Source: Acidimicrobiia bacterium
Lineage (GTDB): Bacteria; Actinomycetota; Acidimicrobiia; Spongiisociales; Spongiisociaceae
Assembly: GCA_003229305.1 (NCBI GenBank)
Contig: QIDH01000055.1
Span: 3,240 to 67,239, forward strand
DNA length: 64,000 bases
Reading direction: 5' to 3'
Below, in pieces: positions 51,017 through 57,033 of the stretch; position 1 is the stretch's first letter; each line of letters begins with the position of its first letter. The position numbers and the translations under genes were made by a program. Under the pieces are notes generated by a model, which was given only the letters and a program-made list of their open reading frames with translations, was not told the DNA's origin and did not search any database.

Positions 51017-51939
51017 TCGAAGGCGAGTGTCCGTCGCAGCTTCGCGTGTTGGTTCGTCGCTCGACCGCGCAGGTCTAGCCATGCCTGCCAGCCGGGTCTT
51101 GGCGTACCATCTGACCTCTACAGGTCCATTGAGGCGAACGGCTCTTCGTTCACCAGGTCTGCCGAAGACAAAGGTCCAGATTCGCAGTGGAGCGTCAATG
51201 CGATCGAGCTGTTCGAAGATCAAGGCGATGAAATCGTTCTGCTCAGCTTCGGACCCTGGCAGCAGGGCGAGGTCGGGGTCTGCGATCCATCCGATCTCGG
51301 TGAAGAACGCAGGGAGACCCACTCGATCCGTGATCTGGGTGTAGTGGTCGGTCGGTAGATCAGAAGGGTCCTCGGGCACGAGGCTCGGGGTATGTCGTGA
51401 AACCCACGGCGTCCGCGCCGGCGAAACGATCGATGATGTCCCCGGCTTGACGACGGATCCGCCAAACCACCCGTCGCGACGACTCAGCAGCCGCTCGTAC
51501 TGGAACGTGACGAACAACTTTGTCTCCGGAGACTCCCGACGGACCACCGAGAGGGCCTCGTCTCCCATAGAGCGACGGTGGCCTCAAACCCGGCTGAATC
51601 ACCGGAGGCCAGCATGTTGACCTCGTTGGCGAGGCCGAGGTACGCAGGGCGGTGCTTGGCGACGAAAGCCCCGAGCGACTGGAGGTAAGCGGTCCTGGTT
51701 GGCTCGTCGATCGGCCTGATCAGCTCGCCTGCTGGACTTGCGCTCGCGACCGCCGTGAAATCAAGGCTGCGTTGGTCGGCCAGCGTTGCTGCTACATCGA
51801 AAACCGTGCCGTCCAGCTCAGCCCAATCGCTCGCATGGAACAGAACGTCGAAATTTTCTTCGCCAACGTGATTGGACAGGGCACTAGCGTCGGGCTTGAT
51901 GAACAGAACCCGCGGAGGCTGGGAGTATGGACAGAACCG
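51013..51939 (-). pseudogene. Decayed clan GH-A (TIM-barrel) glycoside hydrolase-like gene: no start codon, at least 2 frameshifts, one internal TAG
   Basis: The minus-strand reading gives ...AYLGLANEVNMLASG (acid/base NE motif) in one frame, open only from the TGA at 51940. ...LPAFFTEIGWIADP (nucleophile TE-G-W motif) lies in a second frame. ...ADLVNEEPFASMDL*RSDGTPRPGWQAWLDL lies in a third frame with a TAG at 51118-51120. Confidence 0.55.
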
Positions 51940-52550
51940 TCACGATCGAGGTGTTTGCGGACATCAACTGTCCGTTCACCCATGTTGGCCTCGAGCTCGT
52001 CACTTCGGAACTGGCGAGCCATGAAATATCGTTCGAGTGCTGGGTCCGCGCCTGGCCACTCGAGTGGGTAAATGGTCTTCCACTCGACGCTGAATCAGTG
52101 CGATCCAAAGCTGATGTCTTGCGGGACGAGCTGGGAATCGAACGATTCTCAGGGTTCAGGACAGATCGATGGCCTGCCACCACGATTTCGGCGCTCAATC
52201 TGGCAGCTGACGCATACCGCGTGGGCCCCCAGGTGGGTCTGAGCGTTAGCCTGGGCCTCCGGGATGCTCTTTTCGAGCGCGGTCGAGATATCAGCGACCC
52301 ACAGGTCCTGGCCGGCATCGCGGCTGCCAACGACCTGCCTGCGCCTTCCGCCGAGCCGACCGAGGCCGTGCTTGGCGACTATGCCGAGGGCCGGCGTCGT
52401 GGCGTCAGGGGTTCTCCTGACTTCTACGTTGGAGACGAGGAGTTTTTCTGTCCCTCACTGGAACTCGGCCATGACAGTTCCGGTCATCTGACGGCCAGTT
52501 TCGACATTGCCGGTCTCAGGCGCTTCGTGGCCCGCGTCGTCGACCCCTAA
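51927..52550 (+). CDS. DsbA/FrnE-like thioredoxin-fold protein with monothiol CPFT motif
   Basis: MDRTVTIEVFADINCPFTHVG in the typical DsbA_FrnE N-terminal arrangement, but with C-P-F-T instead of CxxC. 207 aa. Confidence 0.7.
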   Translation: MDRTVTIEVFADINCPFTHVGLELVTSELASHEISFECWVRAWPLEWVNGLPLDAESVRSKADVLRDELGIERFSGFRTDRWPATTISALNLAADAYRVGPQVGLSVSLGLRDALFERGRDISDPQVLAGIAAANDLPAPSAEPTEAVLGDYAEGRRRGVRGSPDFYVGDEEFFCPSLELGHDSSGHLTASFDIAGLRRFVARVVDP

Positions 52551-52685
52551 GCCCAGTGGGTTCGGCCGCCCTGTTCAGCAATCTCGGGGCCAGTCTCTGC
52601 GGTGTTGCGATTGACTCGCTAGGCAGGGCGACGAATCACACCCGCGTGATTCGATGCCTGCGAAGCAGGTACCATCCGCTCTGTT

Positions 52686-55600
52686 GTGCACGTTTTTGAT
52701 ACCGAGCCGGACCAGGGCGCCGTTCCAGCGGAATCGCCTCTGTTCGCTGACCTGAACCCTTCCCAGCGCGAGGCGGTGGCCGCCACCGAGGGACCGGTGT
52801 TGGTGGTGGCGGGGGCGGGGTCGGGCAAGACGAGGGTCCTGACCTATCGCATCGCCCATCTGGTTCGTGACCTGAACGTGCCTCCATCCGCGATTTTGGC
52901 GATCACCTTCACCAACAAGGCTGCGGACGAAATGAGGGAGAGGGTTGCGGCCCTGGTCGGCGGTGCAGTCCGCAACATGTGGGTTTCGACGTTTCACTCT
53001 GCTTGCGTTCGGATCCTGAGGCGCGAGGCGTCCAGGCTTGGCTATCGATCGTCCTTCACGATCTACGACGCCCAAGACTCGTTGCGAGCCATCACTCTGG
53101 CCATCAAGGATCTCAACCTCGACCCCAAGAAATTTCCGCCGCGCACGATCAGGGCCACGATCTCGGCGGCCAAGAACGAGCTGATCGACTACGAGACGTT
53201 CGGCGGCCAGAACAACGGCTACTACAACGAGAACGTGGCAGACGTGTACCGGCTGTACCAGCAGCGCATGGTCGAGGCCTCGGCGATGGACTTCGATGAC
53301 CTGCTGATGGTCACCGTCGAGCTGTTCGGCGCCTTCCCAGACGTGCTCGAGTACTACCAGGAACGATTCCGCTACGTCCTGGTCGACGAATATCAGGACA
53401 CCAATCGGGCGCAGTATCAGCTCGTCAAGATGTTGGCCGCCCAACACCGCAATCTGTGCGTTGTGGGTGACAGCGACCAGTGTCTCCCTGCCGACGTGCA
53501 GATCAGCACGCTTTCGGGTTCGGTCCGGATCGCCGACCTGGCGGAGGGTGACCGGGTGCTTGGAATCGGCGGCGACGGATCGGCGACTGAGGCAAGGGTG
53601 GCTGCGGTCAGGTCGTCTACCTATGCGGGCCGCCTGTACAGGGTGTGGGCCGGCGAGCGGACCATCGAGGGCACTCCCCACCACATCTTGCCGGCCCGCC
53701 TCGACAACCTTTCTGGGTCGCACATTGTGTACCTGATGTATAGATCTGACAAAGGATTTCGCATCGGCCTCACGCAATCCTTCCGTCAGAGCAATCGCGG
53801 GAAACGAGATATCGGGTTGAGGGTCCGCTCCAATCAGGAGCACGCTGACAAGGCATGGATTCTCAGGCTGTGCGACTCGCGGGCTGAGGCAAGTTTCTGG
53901 GAGGCGAAACTCTCAGCAGAGTACGGCCTTCCCACTACGTGTTTTCATTCGGTAGGGCGCGAGCTGACAATGGACCAACCCTGGATCGACCGGCTCTACG
54001 ACGAGCTCGATACGGTCTTGGCGGCAAAATGGCTCATGCACGACTTGGATTTGCACACTGAATACCCCCACCACCTTGCACAGAACGGGTATCGACGCCG
54101 AACGCTCAATTTGACGATGTTCTCAGATCGCCGGAACGCCGACATCGGCTATCACCGAGTCCAATGGTCCTCTAACCGTGCCGATGTGGCCGAACGCCTT
54201 CGCGAGGCAGGCTTTCCCATTCGGCCAGGCAAGTTGGACGGGACCTGGCGGTTGGAGACTTCACGCAAGAGCTACCCGGAGGCCCTTCAATATGCAAAGA
54301 GGGCCGCCGGGGCGGGCGGCCTGCAGATCGCCAGGCGGCTTTGCATCGACCGGATCATGTATCACTACACGCCGCTCTCCCATCTCCGGCCGGGGATGAC
54401 CATGCTCGAAGTCGTCGACGGTCTGGCAGTCGAATCAAGTGTCGACCGGGTCGAAATCGGCGACTGGCACGGCGAAGTATTCGACATCGAGGTGACGCCT
54501 CATCACACGTACGTGGCGAACGGGCTAGTCGTTCACAACAGCGTGTACAAATTTCGGGGCGCGGACATTCGCAACATTCTGCGCTTCGAAGAGGACTACG
54601 AGGACGCTCGGATCGTGGTGCTCGATCAGAACTATCGGTCGACCGAGACCATCCTCGACGCCGCCAACGCGGTCATCTCCAACAACGCGCAGCGCAAGCC
54701 CAAACGTCTCTGGACGGATCTCGGTGTCGGCGTGCCGATTGTGCGTTTCGAGGCGGAGGACGAACACGACGAGGCGGGATTCATCGCTGACACGCTTAAC
54801 CAGTTGGACGATCAGGGCGAGCCGGTGTCGCGCGCCGCGATTTTCTACCGGACCAACGCCCAGAGCCGAGTCGTAGAGGAGGTGATGGTTCGCTACGGCA
54901 TCCCATACAACGTCATAGGCAGCGTCAAATTCTACGAGCGGCGCGAGATCAAGGACGTGCTCGCCTATCTGCGGGTCATCGCCAACCCAGACGATCCGAT
55001 TTCCGTCAAGCGAGTGGTCAACGTTCCCAAGCGCGGGATCGGAGACACCTCGCTCGGCCATGTCGATCGGCACGCCGAAAATCAGGGCATCACCTTCTTT
55101 GAGGCCTTGCGGGCGGCAGACGACATTCCTGCCCTGAACAGTCGGGCAGCGAATGCAATCAGAGATTTTGTGACTGTGATCGATGAACTTGGCTTGGTTG
55201 CGGGTGAGTCTGGACCGACCGCCGCGGTTCAGGCCGTATATGACATGACCCAGTATCTCGCCAACTTCGAGATCGAAAAGACAATCGAGTCGCTCGGCAG
55301 GGCCGAGAATCTGCGTGAGCTGTTGTCAGGCACCGAAGAGTTCGAGAACTCGTCAGAAGGCTCGGTCGTCAACGGCGAAGAGTGGGACGAGATGGACGGT
55401 CGTCGCCGGCTCGAACTTTTCCTCGAATCGGTCAGCTTGGTGGCAGACATCGACGACATGGAAGATGATTCGCACGCCGTCACCCTCATGACGCTGCACA
55501 ACGCCAAAGGACTCGAATTCCCCAATGTGTTCATCGTCGGGATGGAGGACGGGATCTTCCCCCACCTGCGGTCCCTCGGAGATCCGGATGAACTGGAGGA

Positions 55601-55976
55601 GGAGCGCCGCCTGTGTTATGTCGGGTTGACCAGGGCCAAGCAGCGCCTGTTCCTGACCAGCGCCTTCTCGCGCATGCTGTTCGGATCGACCAACTACAAC
55701 CCCGCATCTCGGTTCCTGAAGGAGATCCCCCAGGGTCTGATGGAAGAAGCGGGCAAGAGAACTCGGCGGGCCTCGAAGGAGACAGCCGGCGGCGCGGTTG
55801 TGACCGTGGCCGGAGACGAGATTCAGCCGGGCGACCGAGTGCATCACGCCAAGCATGGCAAGGGCACTGTGCAGGAGGTGAACGGGATAGGTGACCGGGC
55901 TGAAGCCGTAGTCGATTTCGACGACGGAAATGCGCGGCGCCTACTTCTCGCCTGGGCCCCAATGCAGAAAACCTAA
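52686..55976 (+). CDS. pcrA: ATP-dependent DNA helicase PcrA/UvrD, intein-containing precursor (743-aa extein plus 353-aa intein)
   Basis: GTG start. Walker A AGAGSGKT, motif II VLVDEYQDTN, motif III split as VVGDSDQ | intein | SVYKFRGADIRN. Later UvrD motifs follow (QNYRS, TLHNAKGLEF, RRLCYVGLTRAK) and a C-terminal Tudor-like tail. Confidence 0.93.
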   Translation: MHVFDTEPDQGAVPAESPLFADLNPSQREAVAATEGPVLVVAGAGSGKTRVLTYRIAHLVRDLNVPPSAILAITFTNKAADEMRERVAALVGGAVRNMWVSTFHSACVRILRREASRLGYRSSFTIYDAQDSLRAITLAIKDLNLDPKKFPPRTIRATISAAKNELIDYETFGGQNNGYYNENVADVYRLYQQRMVEASAMDFDDLLMVTVELFGAFPDVLEYYQERFRYVLVDEYQDTNRAQYQLVKMLAAQHRNLCVVGDSDQCLPADVQISTLSGSVRIADLAEGDRVLGIGGDGSATEARVAAVRSSTYAGRLYRVWAGERTIEGTPHHILPARLDNLSGSHIVYLMYRSDKGFRIGLTQSFRQSNRGKRDIGLRVRSNQEHADKAWILRLCDSRAEASFWEAKLSAEYGLPTTCFHSVGRELTMDQPWIDRLYDELDTVLAAKWLMHDLDLHTEYPHHLAQNGYRRRTLNLTMFSDRRNADIGYHRVQWSSNRADVAERLREAGFPIRPGKLDGTWRLETSRKSYPEALQYAKRAAGAGGLQIARRLCIDRIMYHYTPLSHLRPGMTMLEVVDGLAVESSVDRVEIGDWHGEVFDIEVTPHHTYVANGLVVHNSVYKFRGADIRNILRFEEDYEDARIVVLDQNYRSTETILDAANAVISNNAQRKPKRLWTDLGVGVPIVRFEAEDEHDEAGFIADTLNQLDDQGEPVSRAAIFYRTNAQSRVVEEVMVRYGIPYNVIGSVKFYERREIKDVLAYLRVIANPDDPISVKRVVNVPKRGIGDTSLGHVDRHAENQGITFFEALRAADDIPALNSRAANAIRDFVTVIDELGLVAGESGPTAAVQAVYDMTQYLANFEIEKTIESLGRAENLRELLSGTEEFENSSEGSVVNGEEWDEMDGRRRLELFLESVSLVADIDDMEDDSHAVTLMTLHNAKGLEFPNVFIVGMEDGIFPHLRSLGDPDELEEERRLCYVGLTRAKQRLFLTSAFSRMLFGSTNYNPASRFLKEIPQGLMEEAGKRTRRASKETAGGAVVTVAGDEIQPGDRVHHAKHGKGTVQEVNGIGDRAEAVVDFDDGNARRLLLAWAPMQKT
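53481..54539 (+). mobile_element. Intein (353 aa) inserted in helicase motif III of pcrA/uvrD
   Basis: It begins with Cys (CLPADVQISTLSG, block A), has block B GTPHHILP, blocks F/G VFDIEVTPHHTYVANGLVVHN, and a +1 Ser. Removing it restores VVGDSDQSVYKFRGA. Length is 1059 nt, in frame. Confidence 0.9.
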
Positions 55977-56010
55977 ACCCTCGAACCCCTACGGCCGTTG
56001 TGGCGCGCAT

Positions 56011-56073
56011 GGAACCCTGGGTTGTACTCGGGGTTCCCACGGTCGCTATAGCGACCCTGGGAACCCACGGTTC
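56011..56073 (+). repeat. Double-hairpin intergenic repeat, copy A (forward)
   Basis: GGAACCCTGGGTTGTACTCGGGGTTCCCACGGTCGCTATAGCGACCCTGGGAACCCACGGTTC, starting 35 nt after the pcrA stop. Confidence 0.85.
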
Positions 56074-56139
56074 GCCAACCGGTCTGAGGCTGTTGCACGT
56101 TCGCTCCTAGGATCGAGCCATGCAGCGGACGGTTCGGAG

Positions 56140-57033
56140 ATGAGAGCAGCGGTCACAATCGGGCCTGGCGAGTTGGAAATCGTCGACACCGATCTAACGA
56201 AACGCAGGCCGGGCGAGGTGGTCGTAAGGGTGCAGCTTTCGATGCTCACCTCAACGGATGCGGCCTGGTTCCAAGCGCCGCGGGTCGATTTACTCCCTAT
56301 GGTCCAGGGTGGTCAGGCGGCGGGAATCTTGGACGCTGGAAGTCAGGGGTCGGGGAGCGGCCGCAATGTCGTGGTCTGGCCGTGGATGAACTGTCGCCGT
56401 TGTCGATCGTGTCGCTCAACGTCTAACGAAGTATGTGAGTCTCGCTCCCGACTCGGAATCGATCGGCCTGGCACGCTCTCCGAGATTGCGATCGTGCCGA
56501 GGGCCAACATCGTGACCGTCCCAGGCAGCGTCGGCCCAGCCGAGGCCCTTGCTGCGGTCGAGTATGCAGACGCATGGCGATTGCTCGCCGACGCGGGCAC
56601 AATTGGCCGACAGTCTCGGATACTGGTCGCCGGTAGCGGTCTACTCGCCGATCAGCTGGTCACCCTGGCCGAGCACATGCACGCCAGCGTGGCGAGGGGC
56701 GTGAGCATCCCCGGTTTGACCTTCACCCACATCTTCGCGATCAACGCGCCAATCGATGGACTCCTGCCAGCCTTGAAACCCGCAGGGACCGTGGTTGTGG
56801 CAGGCCACGGTTTGCCTGTAAGCGAAGTTGATCTGCGCTACCTGACTGCCGCCGAGCTGACGGTCAAGGGAAGCGGGCTTGCCAACACTGGGACCTGCGG
56901 AGATCTGTTGACGTGGATGGGTGAAACAGGTTTCGTGCCTGCGGTAGGTGACATCGTTTCGCTCGATGAGGTGGCAAAAGGTCTGGCCGACCTCGGAGGA
57001 TCGTTTAAGCCACTGCTCGTGTCGATCCGCTGA
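56140..57033 (+). CDS. Medium-chain dehydrogenase/reductase (zinc-ADH-like) family protein with degenerate catalytic zinc site
   Basis: ATG at 56140. GroES-like N-domain, structural-zinc Cys cluster CRRCRSCRSTSNEVC and Rossmann LVAGSGLLA. The GHE catalytic motif position reads QGGQ. Confidence 0.7.
   Translation: MRAAVTIGPGELEIVDTDLTKRRPGEVVVRVQLSMLTSTDAAWFQAPRVDLLPMVQGGQAAGILDAGSQGSGSGRNVVVWPWMNCRRCRSCRSTSNEVCESRSRLGIDRPGTLSEIAIVPRANIVTVPGSVGPAEALAAVEYADAWRLLADAGTIGRQSRILVAGSGLLADQLVTLAEHMHASVARGVSIPGLTFTHIFAINAPIDGLLPALKPAGTVVVAGHGLPVSEVDLRYLTAAELTVKGSGLANTGTCGDLLTWMGETGFVPAVGDIVSLDEVAKGLADLGGSFKPLLVSIR

Follow-up and report, generated by a model that had tools for sequence, protein, structure and literature searches.

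Why does the helicase gene pcrA of an Acidimicrobiia bacterium carry 353 codons that most of its closest orthologues lack, and what do these codons encode? The gene lies in a stretch of 64,000 nucleotides of contig QIDH01000055.1 (assembly GCA_003229305.1, positions 3,240 to 67,239 of the forward strand), which we call the window. The additional segment, at positions 53481-54539, almost certainly encodes a class-1 intein, inserted in motif III of PcrA between GDSDQ and SVYKFRGA. At its centre are two modules, the first of which probably descends from the GIY-YIG nucleases. Inteins are thought to carry LAGLIDADG endonucleases and, rarely, HNH endonucleases. The parts of the locus are the following, with intein residues numbered from the first cysteine (Cys1) and aa denoting amino acids.

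52686..55976, forward strand: pcrA precursor open reading frame (ORF), intein included; 1096 aa plus stop, from the ORF list
52686..53480, forward strand: N-extein, aa 1-265; ends with the first half of motif III, VVGDSDQ; the PF00580 match stops at aa 266
53481..54539, forward strand: class-1 intein, 353 aa, Cys1 ... His352-Asn353
53481..53705, forward strand: N-terminal part of the Hint domain, intein residues 1-75; beta-strands with a predicted local distance difference test score (pLDDT) of 84-97; Foldseek matches to solved inteins
53481-53483, forward strand: block A, Cys1 (codon check)
53673-53675 and 53682-53684, forward strand: block B, T65 and H68 (codon check)
53706..53960, forward strand: module 1, putative GIY-YIG-like nuclease core, intein residues 76-160
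53730-53732, 53760-53768 and 53826-53828, forward strand: module 1 codons of Y84, R94-I95-G96 and R116
53838-53840, 53847-53849 and 53901-53903, forward strand: module 1 codons of E120, D123 and E141; W126, E136 and P151 also belong to this module
53961..54323, forward strand: linker helices and module 2, intein residues 161-281; alpha/beta domain, family unassigned, presumed DNA-binding; residues conserved over family representatives are P196-H197, R206 and R257
54324..54539, forward strand: C-terminal part of the Hint domain, intein residues 282-353; TIGR01443 and PF14890 matches
54534-54539, forward strand: H352-N353 of block G (...GLVVHN), preceded by block F (...VFDIEV, with D335) (codon check)
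54540..55973, forward strand: C-extein, aa 619-1096; starts with the +1 Ser (54540-54542) of SVYKFRGA; UvrD_C from aa 644

The host protein, an SF1A helicase, scores 930.2 bits against TIGR01073, the NCBIfam equivalog model for PcrA (cutoff 911.2), and this match comes in two pieces with the break exactly around aa 266-618. Its Pfam domains are UvrD-helicase (to aa 266), UvrD_C (from aa 644) and PcrA_UvrD_tudor. The translation of the insertion is free of stop codons, begins with CLPADVQIST and ends with VANGLVVHN; VVGDSDQ stands before it and SVYKFRGADIRN after it, and its removal leaves a protein of 743 aa. A codon check found C1, T65, H68, Y84, R94-I95-G96, R116, E120, D123, E141, D335, H352, N353 and Ser+1 all in place, and the residues of a class-1 intein (Cys1, T65xxH68, H352-N353 and Ser+1) are therefore all present. 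Among profile searches, the C-terminal intein model TIGR01443 in NCBIfam was passed (22.8 bits, cutoff 15.6), the N-terminal model TIGR01445 gave a weak match (E 0.09), and Pfam Intein_splicing scored 28.3 bits, below its gathering score of 35.8. Over its last 40-60 residues the intein can be aligned with the mini-inteins Spl DnaX, Pho RadA and Mtu RecA, all of which end in VHN as it does.

The AlphaFold model of the intein, built from 14 sequences, has a mean pLDDT of 88.6 and a predicted template modelling score (pTM) of 0.86. In a Foldseek search of this model against the PDB the top matches were all inteins or Hint domains, with TliVMA at E 4.8e-7 and PI-SceI among them; the target-normalised TM-score was 0.82 for NpuDnaB (root-mean-square deviation (rmsd) 2.2 Å), 0.80-0.81 for Mtu RecA and up to 0.85 for mini-inteins. 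This search is dominated by the Hint domain.

The comparison with orthologues was made with the conceptually spliced 743-aa PcrA, whose 120 best relatives are all PcrA of the Acidimicrobiia type. The insertion is absent from 114 of them, which are mostly 742-747 aa long and in which motif III is continuous, reading VVGD(S/G)DQS(I/V)YxFRGADIR (more broadly GDxDQS(I/V)YxFRGA). The other six, with the window protein (P0019) counted in, have an intein at the same codon. An intein-free relative with 88% identity, P0176, reads VVGDSDQSVYKFRGADIR, which equals the predicted spliced junction. Block A Cys is kept in most intein-bearing relatives, and HN followed by (S/C)IY in most representatives of the family. 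An earlier note on this DNA, made from the letters alone, had described a 1096-aa ORF with an intein splitting motif III and had proposed that excision restores the motif exactly. Both statements hold: the PcrA profile match breaks at the insertion, intein-free orthologues confirm its boundaries at the codon level, the Hint fold appears in the model and its structural matches, and the catalytic residues and the presence or absence among orthologues agree with precise excision. The strings quoted there, namely GTPHHILP (with T65 and H68), IVYLMYRSDKGFRIGLTQ, GLRVRSNQEH and AWILRLCDSRAEASFWEAKLSAEYGLP, were all found.

From these residues we infer class-1 splicing chemistry. The pcrA gene would be translated as a 1096-aa precursor, and the Hint domain, formed by intein residues 1-75 and 282-353, would splice by means of Cys1, Thr65/His68, His352-Asn353 and the +1 Ser. 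The expected steps are an N-S acyl shift at Cys1, transesterification to Ser+1, cyclisation of Asn353 and an O-N shift. Splicing would then release a functional PcrA of 743 aa, active because motif III is restored, and a free intein of 353 aa.

What, then, occupies the centre of this intein? In the AlphaFold model the central region of about 200 residues splits into two modules at the endonuclease position of the Hint fold. The predicted elements of module 1 are beta81-88, beta92-99, a small hairpin, alpha112-119, beta124-131 and alpha134-148, with pLDDT 78-92, which is the beta-beta-alpha-beta-alpha order. Module 2 (about 161-281) is predicted to consist of two short helices followed by a beta-beta-alpha-beta-alpha unit, and the Hint domain resumes at about residue 282. 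Conservation over 128 divergent representatives is very high in module 1: Y84 0.95, G92 0.95, R94 0.95, G96 0.96, R116 0.97, E120 0.99, D123 0.93, W126 0.99, E141 0.99 and P151 1.0, while position E136 is Glu in 68% and Asp in 16%. The window copy retains every conserved family residue.

The central domain differs from the known types of intein endonuclease. No Pfam LAGLIDADG or HNH match was obtained with the window copy or, up to E <= 10, with 64 module-1 members or 46 module-2 members, in keeping with the earlier note, which had seen neither motif. An hhalign comparison with the profile of T4 Mob, an HNH protein, gave a probability of 0.4%. A hidden endonuclease of the kind found in some phage inteins is excluded as well, because neither the other frames of the core nor its opposite strand hold an ORF of more than 91 aa.

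A search of Pfam with single members of the family gave a recurrent answer. When 64 members that are less than 55% identical to each other were scanned singly, PF01541 (GIY-YIG) was the sole recurrent family, matched by seven members (best E 0.0017); other families were matched by one to three members. One of these, T5orf172, matched once, we take to belong to the same Pfam clan as GIY-YIG. Five of ten selected members gave a collinear PF01541 match, running from protein residue 3 or 6 to 68-72 against positions 2 to 68-70 of the 78 in the profile, and the best score was 20.8 bits (E 5e-4; gathering score 22.6). The same member-wise scans of module 2 against Pfam and of module 1 against PHROGs and NCBIfam returned only scattered noise, so the procedure by itself does not yield recurrent families.

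Profile-profile and structural comparisons gave signals of the same kind. As a GIY-YIG reference we used a profile of nine annotated T4 genes and 79 I-TevI-like domains from viral contigs; its I-TevI seed is 100% identical to that of T4 and scores 69 bits on PF01541. The profile of 125 module-1 sequences scored 21.8 against this reference in hhalign, above all 400 decoys (200 column-shuffled, mean 10.5, maximum 20.1; 200 block-shuffled, mean 9.8, maximum 18.4), and the reversed profile scored 8.7. The confident segment places WIL..C..EA...E141 on beta3/alpha2 of I-TevI, with E141 on the catalytic E75, and the extended alignment brings VYLM under GIY and YRIG under YVG. In a Foldseek search against viral predicted structures (BFVD), the same domain came first, in three phage proteins of which two are helicases and the third is an adenine methyltransferase. 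The tail below them was enriched in GIY-YIG homing endonucleases, at E 1.6e-3 to 0.08. It includes a 'Group I intron endonuclease' with E 1.6e-3 (prob 0.96), two proteins at prob 0.82, one with a GIY-YIG domain and one a SegE-like GIY-YIG protein, as well as NUMOD proteins.

The published definition of the superfamily, in a 2006 survey, comprises GIY, YIG, a central Arg and a C-terminal Glu. The hallmark positions of module 1 (Y84, R94, G96, R116, E120 and E141), together with the order of its elements, fit this definition. At the GIY position x-V-Y84 stands on predicted beta1, with the Tyr 95% conserved; at the YIG position (Y/F)93-R94-(I/V)95-G96 stands on beta2, nine residues after Y84 (in the superfamily the distance from GIY is about 10-11), with the Gly 96% conserved. 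R116, 97% conserved and four residues into the predicted helix 112-119, would from its place in the helix be the equivalent of I-TevI R27.

Several results weigh against a GIY-YIG origin. The central domain of the window copy had no match in Pfam (E <= 1), PHROGs (E <= 10) or the PDB sequences, and a search of NCBIfam at E <= 1 with the whole intein returned only intein blocks and a few weak chance matches at the C-terminus. No family member scanned reached the PF01541 gathering score, and none matched the GIY-YIG-labelled models of PHROGs or NCBIfam, such as the group I intron endonuclease. The hhalign probability against the reference was only 13%, with the confident part limited to beta3/alpha2; the profile of the nine T4 sequences alone (0.8%) is uninformative here. 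In the Foldseek search of the central model against the PDB no match reached E <= 1e-3, and none of the 50 matches listed was a GIY-YIG structure; the weak tail was enriched in LAGLIDADG enzymes and also held the C-terminal DNA-binding domain of T4 MotA, matches that we suspect to come from module 2. The residues themselves deviate: 95% of members have Arg where YIG has its tyrosine, and at the aromatic position before it 29% have Phe; E120 (99% Glu) stands four residues past R116, where His or Tyr would be usual; and after the helix, where I-TevI has N90, the family alignment has no conserved Asn and an invariant P151. According to the 2006 survey, this last motif can be missing in some families.

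Taken on their own, these results would suit a different explanation, in which the intein is genuine and its central domain, with a new fold of a nuclease or DNA-binding protein, is no homologue of the GIY-YIG enzymes and has only converged on their order and spacing. Every GIY-YIG signal lies below threshold (20.8 against 22.6 bits; 13% in hhalign), there is no significant PDB fold match, the module 1 and module 2 profiles found nothing useful among PDB sequences, and the catalytic positions are changed, with Tyr to Arg, His to Glu and an additional invariant D123. However, four independent weak signals name the same family in the same register, the controls (module 2 and the other libraries) gave noise only, all 400 decoy profiles scored lower, and the invariant Glu is aligned with the catalytic Glu. 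We consider convergence unlikely. GIY-YIG ancestry of module 1 is the best-supported reading; it is probable, not established, and we do not assign the central domain to PF01541, for which the evidence is concordant but below threshold. In the earlier note this region had been likened to a GIY-YIG fold. The predicted order of elements, the VY-x9-RIG spacing (Y84, nine residues, then R94-I95-G96) and the key Glu of the FWEAKL helix, which hhalign sets on I-TevI E75, stand as described, and the remote-homology signals agree with the likeness; at the level of family thresholds it falls short, with no profile matched by the window copy, and the GIY-YIG structure that the proposed fold search was to look for was not among the 50 PDB structures listed.

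On the reading of module 1 as a highly diverged GIY-YIG-type nuclease core, Y84 would represent the Tyr of GIY, R94-I-G96 would represent YIG, R116 would be the central Arg, E120 would take the usual place of His or Tyr, and E141 would be the metal-binding Glu; the cleavage site would be built from Y84, R94, R116, E120/D123 and E141. Module 2, for which no Pfam or PDB sequence family was found, would most likely be the part that recognises DNA, as in the bipartite GIY-YIG homing endonucleases. The free intein could then recognise the uninterrupted coding sequence of motif III, mainly by module 2 and perhaps by surfaces of the Hint domain, and cleave, close to those codons, pcrA/uvrD alleles that lack the intein. 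The break would be repaired by recombination with an intein-containing allele, and the intein would be copied in. P0176, with a motif III encoding VVGDSDQSVYKFRGADI, is an example of an intein-free allele.

How widespread is this domain? An exhaustive HMMER search with the central-domain profile against 1.84 billion cluster representatives (clusters at 50% identity) yielded 1,817 clusters at E <= 1e-3, of which 1,219 reach E <= 1e-10. The rarity that the earlier note had ascribed to such domains in contiguous inteins is thus true of the literature and not of nature. Among 148 listed matches, most of those with a readable junction are UvrD/PcrA-like helicases in which C...HN stands between GDxxQ and (S/C)IYxFRGA, and inteins with both junctions located are about 342-375 aa long. 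When one genome per species was scanned with two narrow peptide patterns, 265 genomes matched; most belong to Acidimicrobiia or to other Actinomycetota, and Deinococcus, Trueperaceae and Calidithermus are represented too. Cultured carriers include D. murrayi DSM 11303, D. caeni, Calidithermus chliarophilus and Aquihabitans sp. G128; the closest match, with 83% identity, is an uncultured Acidimicrobiia metagenome-assembled genome. At 77 of 80 genome loci the ORF is unbroken and the junctions are unchanged.

The domain also occurs, at about 30% identity, in 69 phage records, from Escherichia, Streptococcus, Bacillus and Campylobacter phages. In GenBank MZ501084 (Escherichia phage JohannJBalmer, bas62_0080) the copy is annotated as a mat_peptide 'intein' in an 'intein-containing UvrD / Rep family helicase precursor'. 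The module-1 core is found in inteins at three sites of UvrD-like helicases: motif II (C...HN between VDE and CQD), motif III and motif V (...VHN before SxKGxE). In the motif V inteins only module 1 was matched and module 2 is absent, a pattern that would be expected of a catalytic cassette with exchangeable DNA-binding parts.

Other observations concern individual members of the family. The three sites are seen in P0047 (aa ~589-983, ~1023-1367 and ~1885-2105), P0083, P0085, P0118, P0155, P0145, P0113, P0098 and P0149, and some giant helicases of 1,800-2,500 aa have two or three such inteins. P0160, a UvrD-like helicase of 1479 aa, combines a LAGLIDADG_3 intein (aa ~105-523) with the GIY-YIG-like type at motif III (aa ~748-1102). 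In P0126 and P0141 the motif III sequence GDDDQ is followed by Ala and not Cys; these may be Ala1 variants of the intein that need another first splicing step. The BFVD entry A0A8S5TZY8, a Myoviridae 'Adenine specific DNA methyltransferase', has the central domain at 28% identity (rmsd 2.3 Å over 133 columns), so the module is not confined to helicase hosts. Many copies on long ENA metagenome contigs (P0005, P0013-P0016 and P0018) are truncated or shift within the intein to an Arg/Pro-rich out-of-frame sequence; they look like assembly indel errors and not pseudogenes, because 77 of 80 genome loci are intact.

To describe selection and mobility, we computed the ratio of nonsynonymous to synonymous change (dN/dS) and the proportion of synonymous differences (pS) against the closest relative, L085. 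The dN/dS was 0.037 for module 1 and 0.059 for module 2, with pS values of 0.73 and 0.66, respectively. The Hint parts gave dN/dS values of 0.09-0.17 and pS values of 0.50-0.57, and the exteins 0.02-0.04 and 0.49-0.50. Judged by these values, purifying selection acts on both modules as strongly as on the helicase. The G+C content of third codon positions (GC3) is 0.635 in module 1 versus 0.815 in the N-extein and 0.757 in the C-extein. The lower GC3 of module 1 and the higher pS of the core suggest a separate, possibly more recent, origin of the core. Identity to this closest relative is 95-99% over the exteins and 82% over the intein. The distribution of the intein is sporadic: in order of extein identity, relatives at 88% are intein-free, those at 81-82% have the intein, those at 74-76% are free of it and at 73% it is present again. 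In Deinococcota, in another phylum, the order is the reverse of that in the closest relative: the inteins are 49-52% identical to the window intein, and the C-exteins 41-46%. The sporadic distribution, the identity across phyla, pS and GC3 are each modest indications, and in combination they agree with horizontal movement of the element.

The integrity of the intein can also be viewed differently. Homing endonucleases are expected to decay once fixed, and this intein is uniformly intact across many lineages, which counts against homing and could also mean retention for a benefit to the host. The central domain would then not be, or would no longer be, a homing nuclease; it would be a DNA- or protein-binding module in a mostly vertically inherited intein, for example one that couples PcrA maturation to DNA damage or to the state of the cell. 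The intact domain with near-constant length in 77 of 80 genomes and a dN/dS as low as that of the essential helicase agree with such a role, and cases are documented, among others by Novikova et al. (2016, PMC4760082), in which inteins of replication and repair proteins splice conditionally and in a regulatory manner. However, carriers are only six of the 120 closest PcrA relatives and are interleaved with intein-free alleles, the cross-phylum identity of the intein equals or exceeds that of the exteins, the core has the higher pS and lower GC3, and the same core occurs at three target motifs and in phages. These patterns are better explained by a mobile element than by a regulator that is fixed, and we regard host benefit as the explanation of the central domain as improbable.

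LAGLIDADG is the default endonuclease of inteins, and the central domain could be an extremely diverged enzyme of that type with its motifs lost. The weak tail of the PDB fold search contains I-GzeII, I-SmaMI, I-Vdi141I (prob 0.69), I-OnuI, I-CvuI, I-DmoI and I-TnaI, and the order of elements in module 2 is roughly alpha-beta-beta-alpha-beta-beta-alpha. Yet these fold matches lie at E 0.1-0.6 and mostly have low probability, helices of the LAGLIDADG type with terminal acidic residues are absent, and the best-conserved residues are in module 1, which has another topology. Because sequence profiles give it no support, with Pfam LAGLIDADG models silent in the window copy and in the diverse members of both modules even at E <= 10, we reject this reading as very improbable. 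That the insertion is no intein at all but a lineage-specific accessory domain retained in mature PcrA has practically no chance of being right, since it splits an essential catalytic motif, has all class-1 residues and the Hint fold, is missing from 114 of 120 closest orthologues, in which the junction closes exactly, and has homologous phage copies annotated as inteins in GenBank.

The reading that we favour combines a class-1 intein at motif III, a diverged GIY-YIG-type core, recognition by module 2 and homing; as a whole we hold it to be fairly likely. That the window copy is a homing endonuclease active at present appears about evenly balanced. More tentatively, and with somewhat less than even confidence, we propose that the family represents a large unrecognised class of contiguous inteins. 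Its endonuclease would descend from GIY-YIG enzymes with a remodelled site (YIG to RIG, His to Glu and an extra Asp) and a new DNA-binding module, would still be active, and would have been retargeted to at least three motifs of superfamily 1 (SF1) helicases and to a phage methyltransferase.

The surroundings of the gene are as follows.

51927-52550, forward strand: upstream neighbour of pcrA, a 207-aa ORF with a CPFTH motif reminiscent of DsbA-like thioredoxin-fold proteins
55930-57033, forward strand: downstream neighbour of pcrA, a 367-aa ORF that overlaps the pcrA stop by about 45 bases; its product looks like a zinc-type alcohol dehydrogenase family protein
52575-53843, reverse strand: antisense ORF of 422 aa that overlaps the front half of pcrA and the beginning of the intein; with a translation rich in Arg, Pro and Gly, it resembles the spurious long ORFs that are common in GC-rich genomes

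Across the 64-kb window no tRNA or tmRNA genes and no Rfam families at gathering score were found.

What would the finding mean? If the central domain is a GIY-YIG derivative, it constitutes a third class of in-frame intein endonuclease, one that has escaped notice for want of a model in any profile library. The class would be abundant, with about 1,800 clusters at 50% identity, and its range would take in Actinomycetota, Deinococcota and phages. It would support repeated capture of free-standing nucleases by inteins, and would offer a natural series in which a single catalytic core has been redirected to three motifs of helicases. Textbooks, according to which inteins contain no GIY-YIG enzymes, would be contradicted. 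For genome engineering, I-TevI already supplies a cleavage module, and the domain would provide a new compact monomeric nuclease scaffold and further GIY-YIG-type cleavage modules. A dedicated profile would allow annotation pipelines to label PcrA/UvrD proteins of about 1,100 aa as intein-containing precursors.

The intein as such is already known, because of the annotation in MZ501084 and because UvrD is listed as a host by Novikova et al. (2016, PMC4760082); it is of class 1 and its host family is known, so that the system is not new in kind. The endonuclease class of its central domain is apparently undescribed. The 2006 phylogenomic survey of GIY-YIG enzymes states that no members of the superfamily had been found in inteins, and reviews concur; we found no later description of a GIY-YIG-type domain in contiguous inteins in the literature searched, which left out most subscription journals. 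The 16 UvrD inteins of Novikova et al. and the intein of MZ501084 share the host family with the window intein, and the phage copy shares its central domain at about 30% identity, while the window copy is chromosomal and in Acidimicrobiia. Both sources, in the portions considered here, call the element an intein and do not state the nature of its central domain.

Among characterised systems, the LAGLIDADG class-1 inteins (PI-SceI/VMA1, PI-PfuI and PI-MtuI of Mtu RecA) resemble the window intein in the Hint fold split by an insert at the endonuclease position, in Cys1, TxxH, the terminal HN and the +1 nucleophile, and in a site within a conserved motif of an ATPase of DNA metabolism; they are also its best PDB fold matches. 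Unlike theirs, the window insert has no LAGLIDADG motifs and consists of two different modules and not of a pseudo-symmetric double domain. The fractured genes described by Dassa et al. (2009, PMC2677866) likewise join an intein and a GIY-YIG-type nuclease in genes of DNA replication and repair, an arrangement proposed there as a route to new endonuclease domains of inteins. In that case, however, a free-standing GIY-YIG/Vsr-like endonuclease gene lies between the halves of a split intein, whereas the window intein is one contiguous frame. Endonucleases other than in-frame LAGLIDADG have been recruited by the non-canonical inteins of a preprint by Gosselin et al. (2025), whose types are in-frame HNH, antisense LAGLIDADG, antisense VSR-like and out-of-frame EndoVII-like; none of them is in-frame and of GIY-YIG type, as the window core would be.

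The comparison closest to module 1 is that with the GIY-YIG homing endonucleases themselves (I-TevI, I-BmoI and T4 SegA-G; PF01541). The window core differs from these enzymes in lying in frame inside an intein, while they are free-standing or intron-encoded, and in having RIG for YIG, Glu for His/Tyr, an additional invariant D123 and a beta-hairpin in place of part of the first helix region. The window domain also has no NUMOD, zinc-finger or helix-turn-helix tail and stays below the Pfam gathering score. It resembles them in the order of its elements and in the hallmark positions of module 1, and, like them, it appears to be bipartite, with a catalytic core joined to a separate DNA-binding part that can be exchanged.

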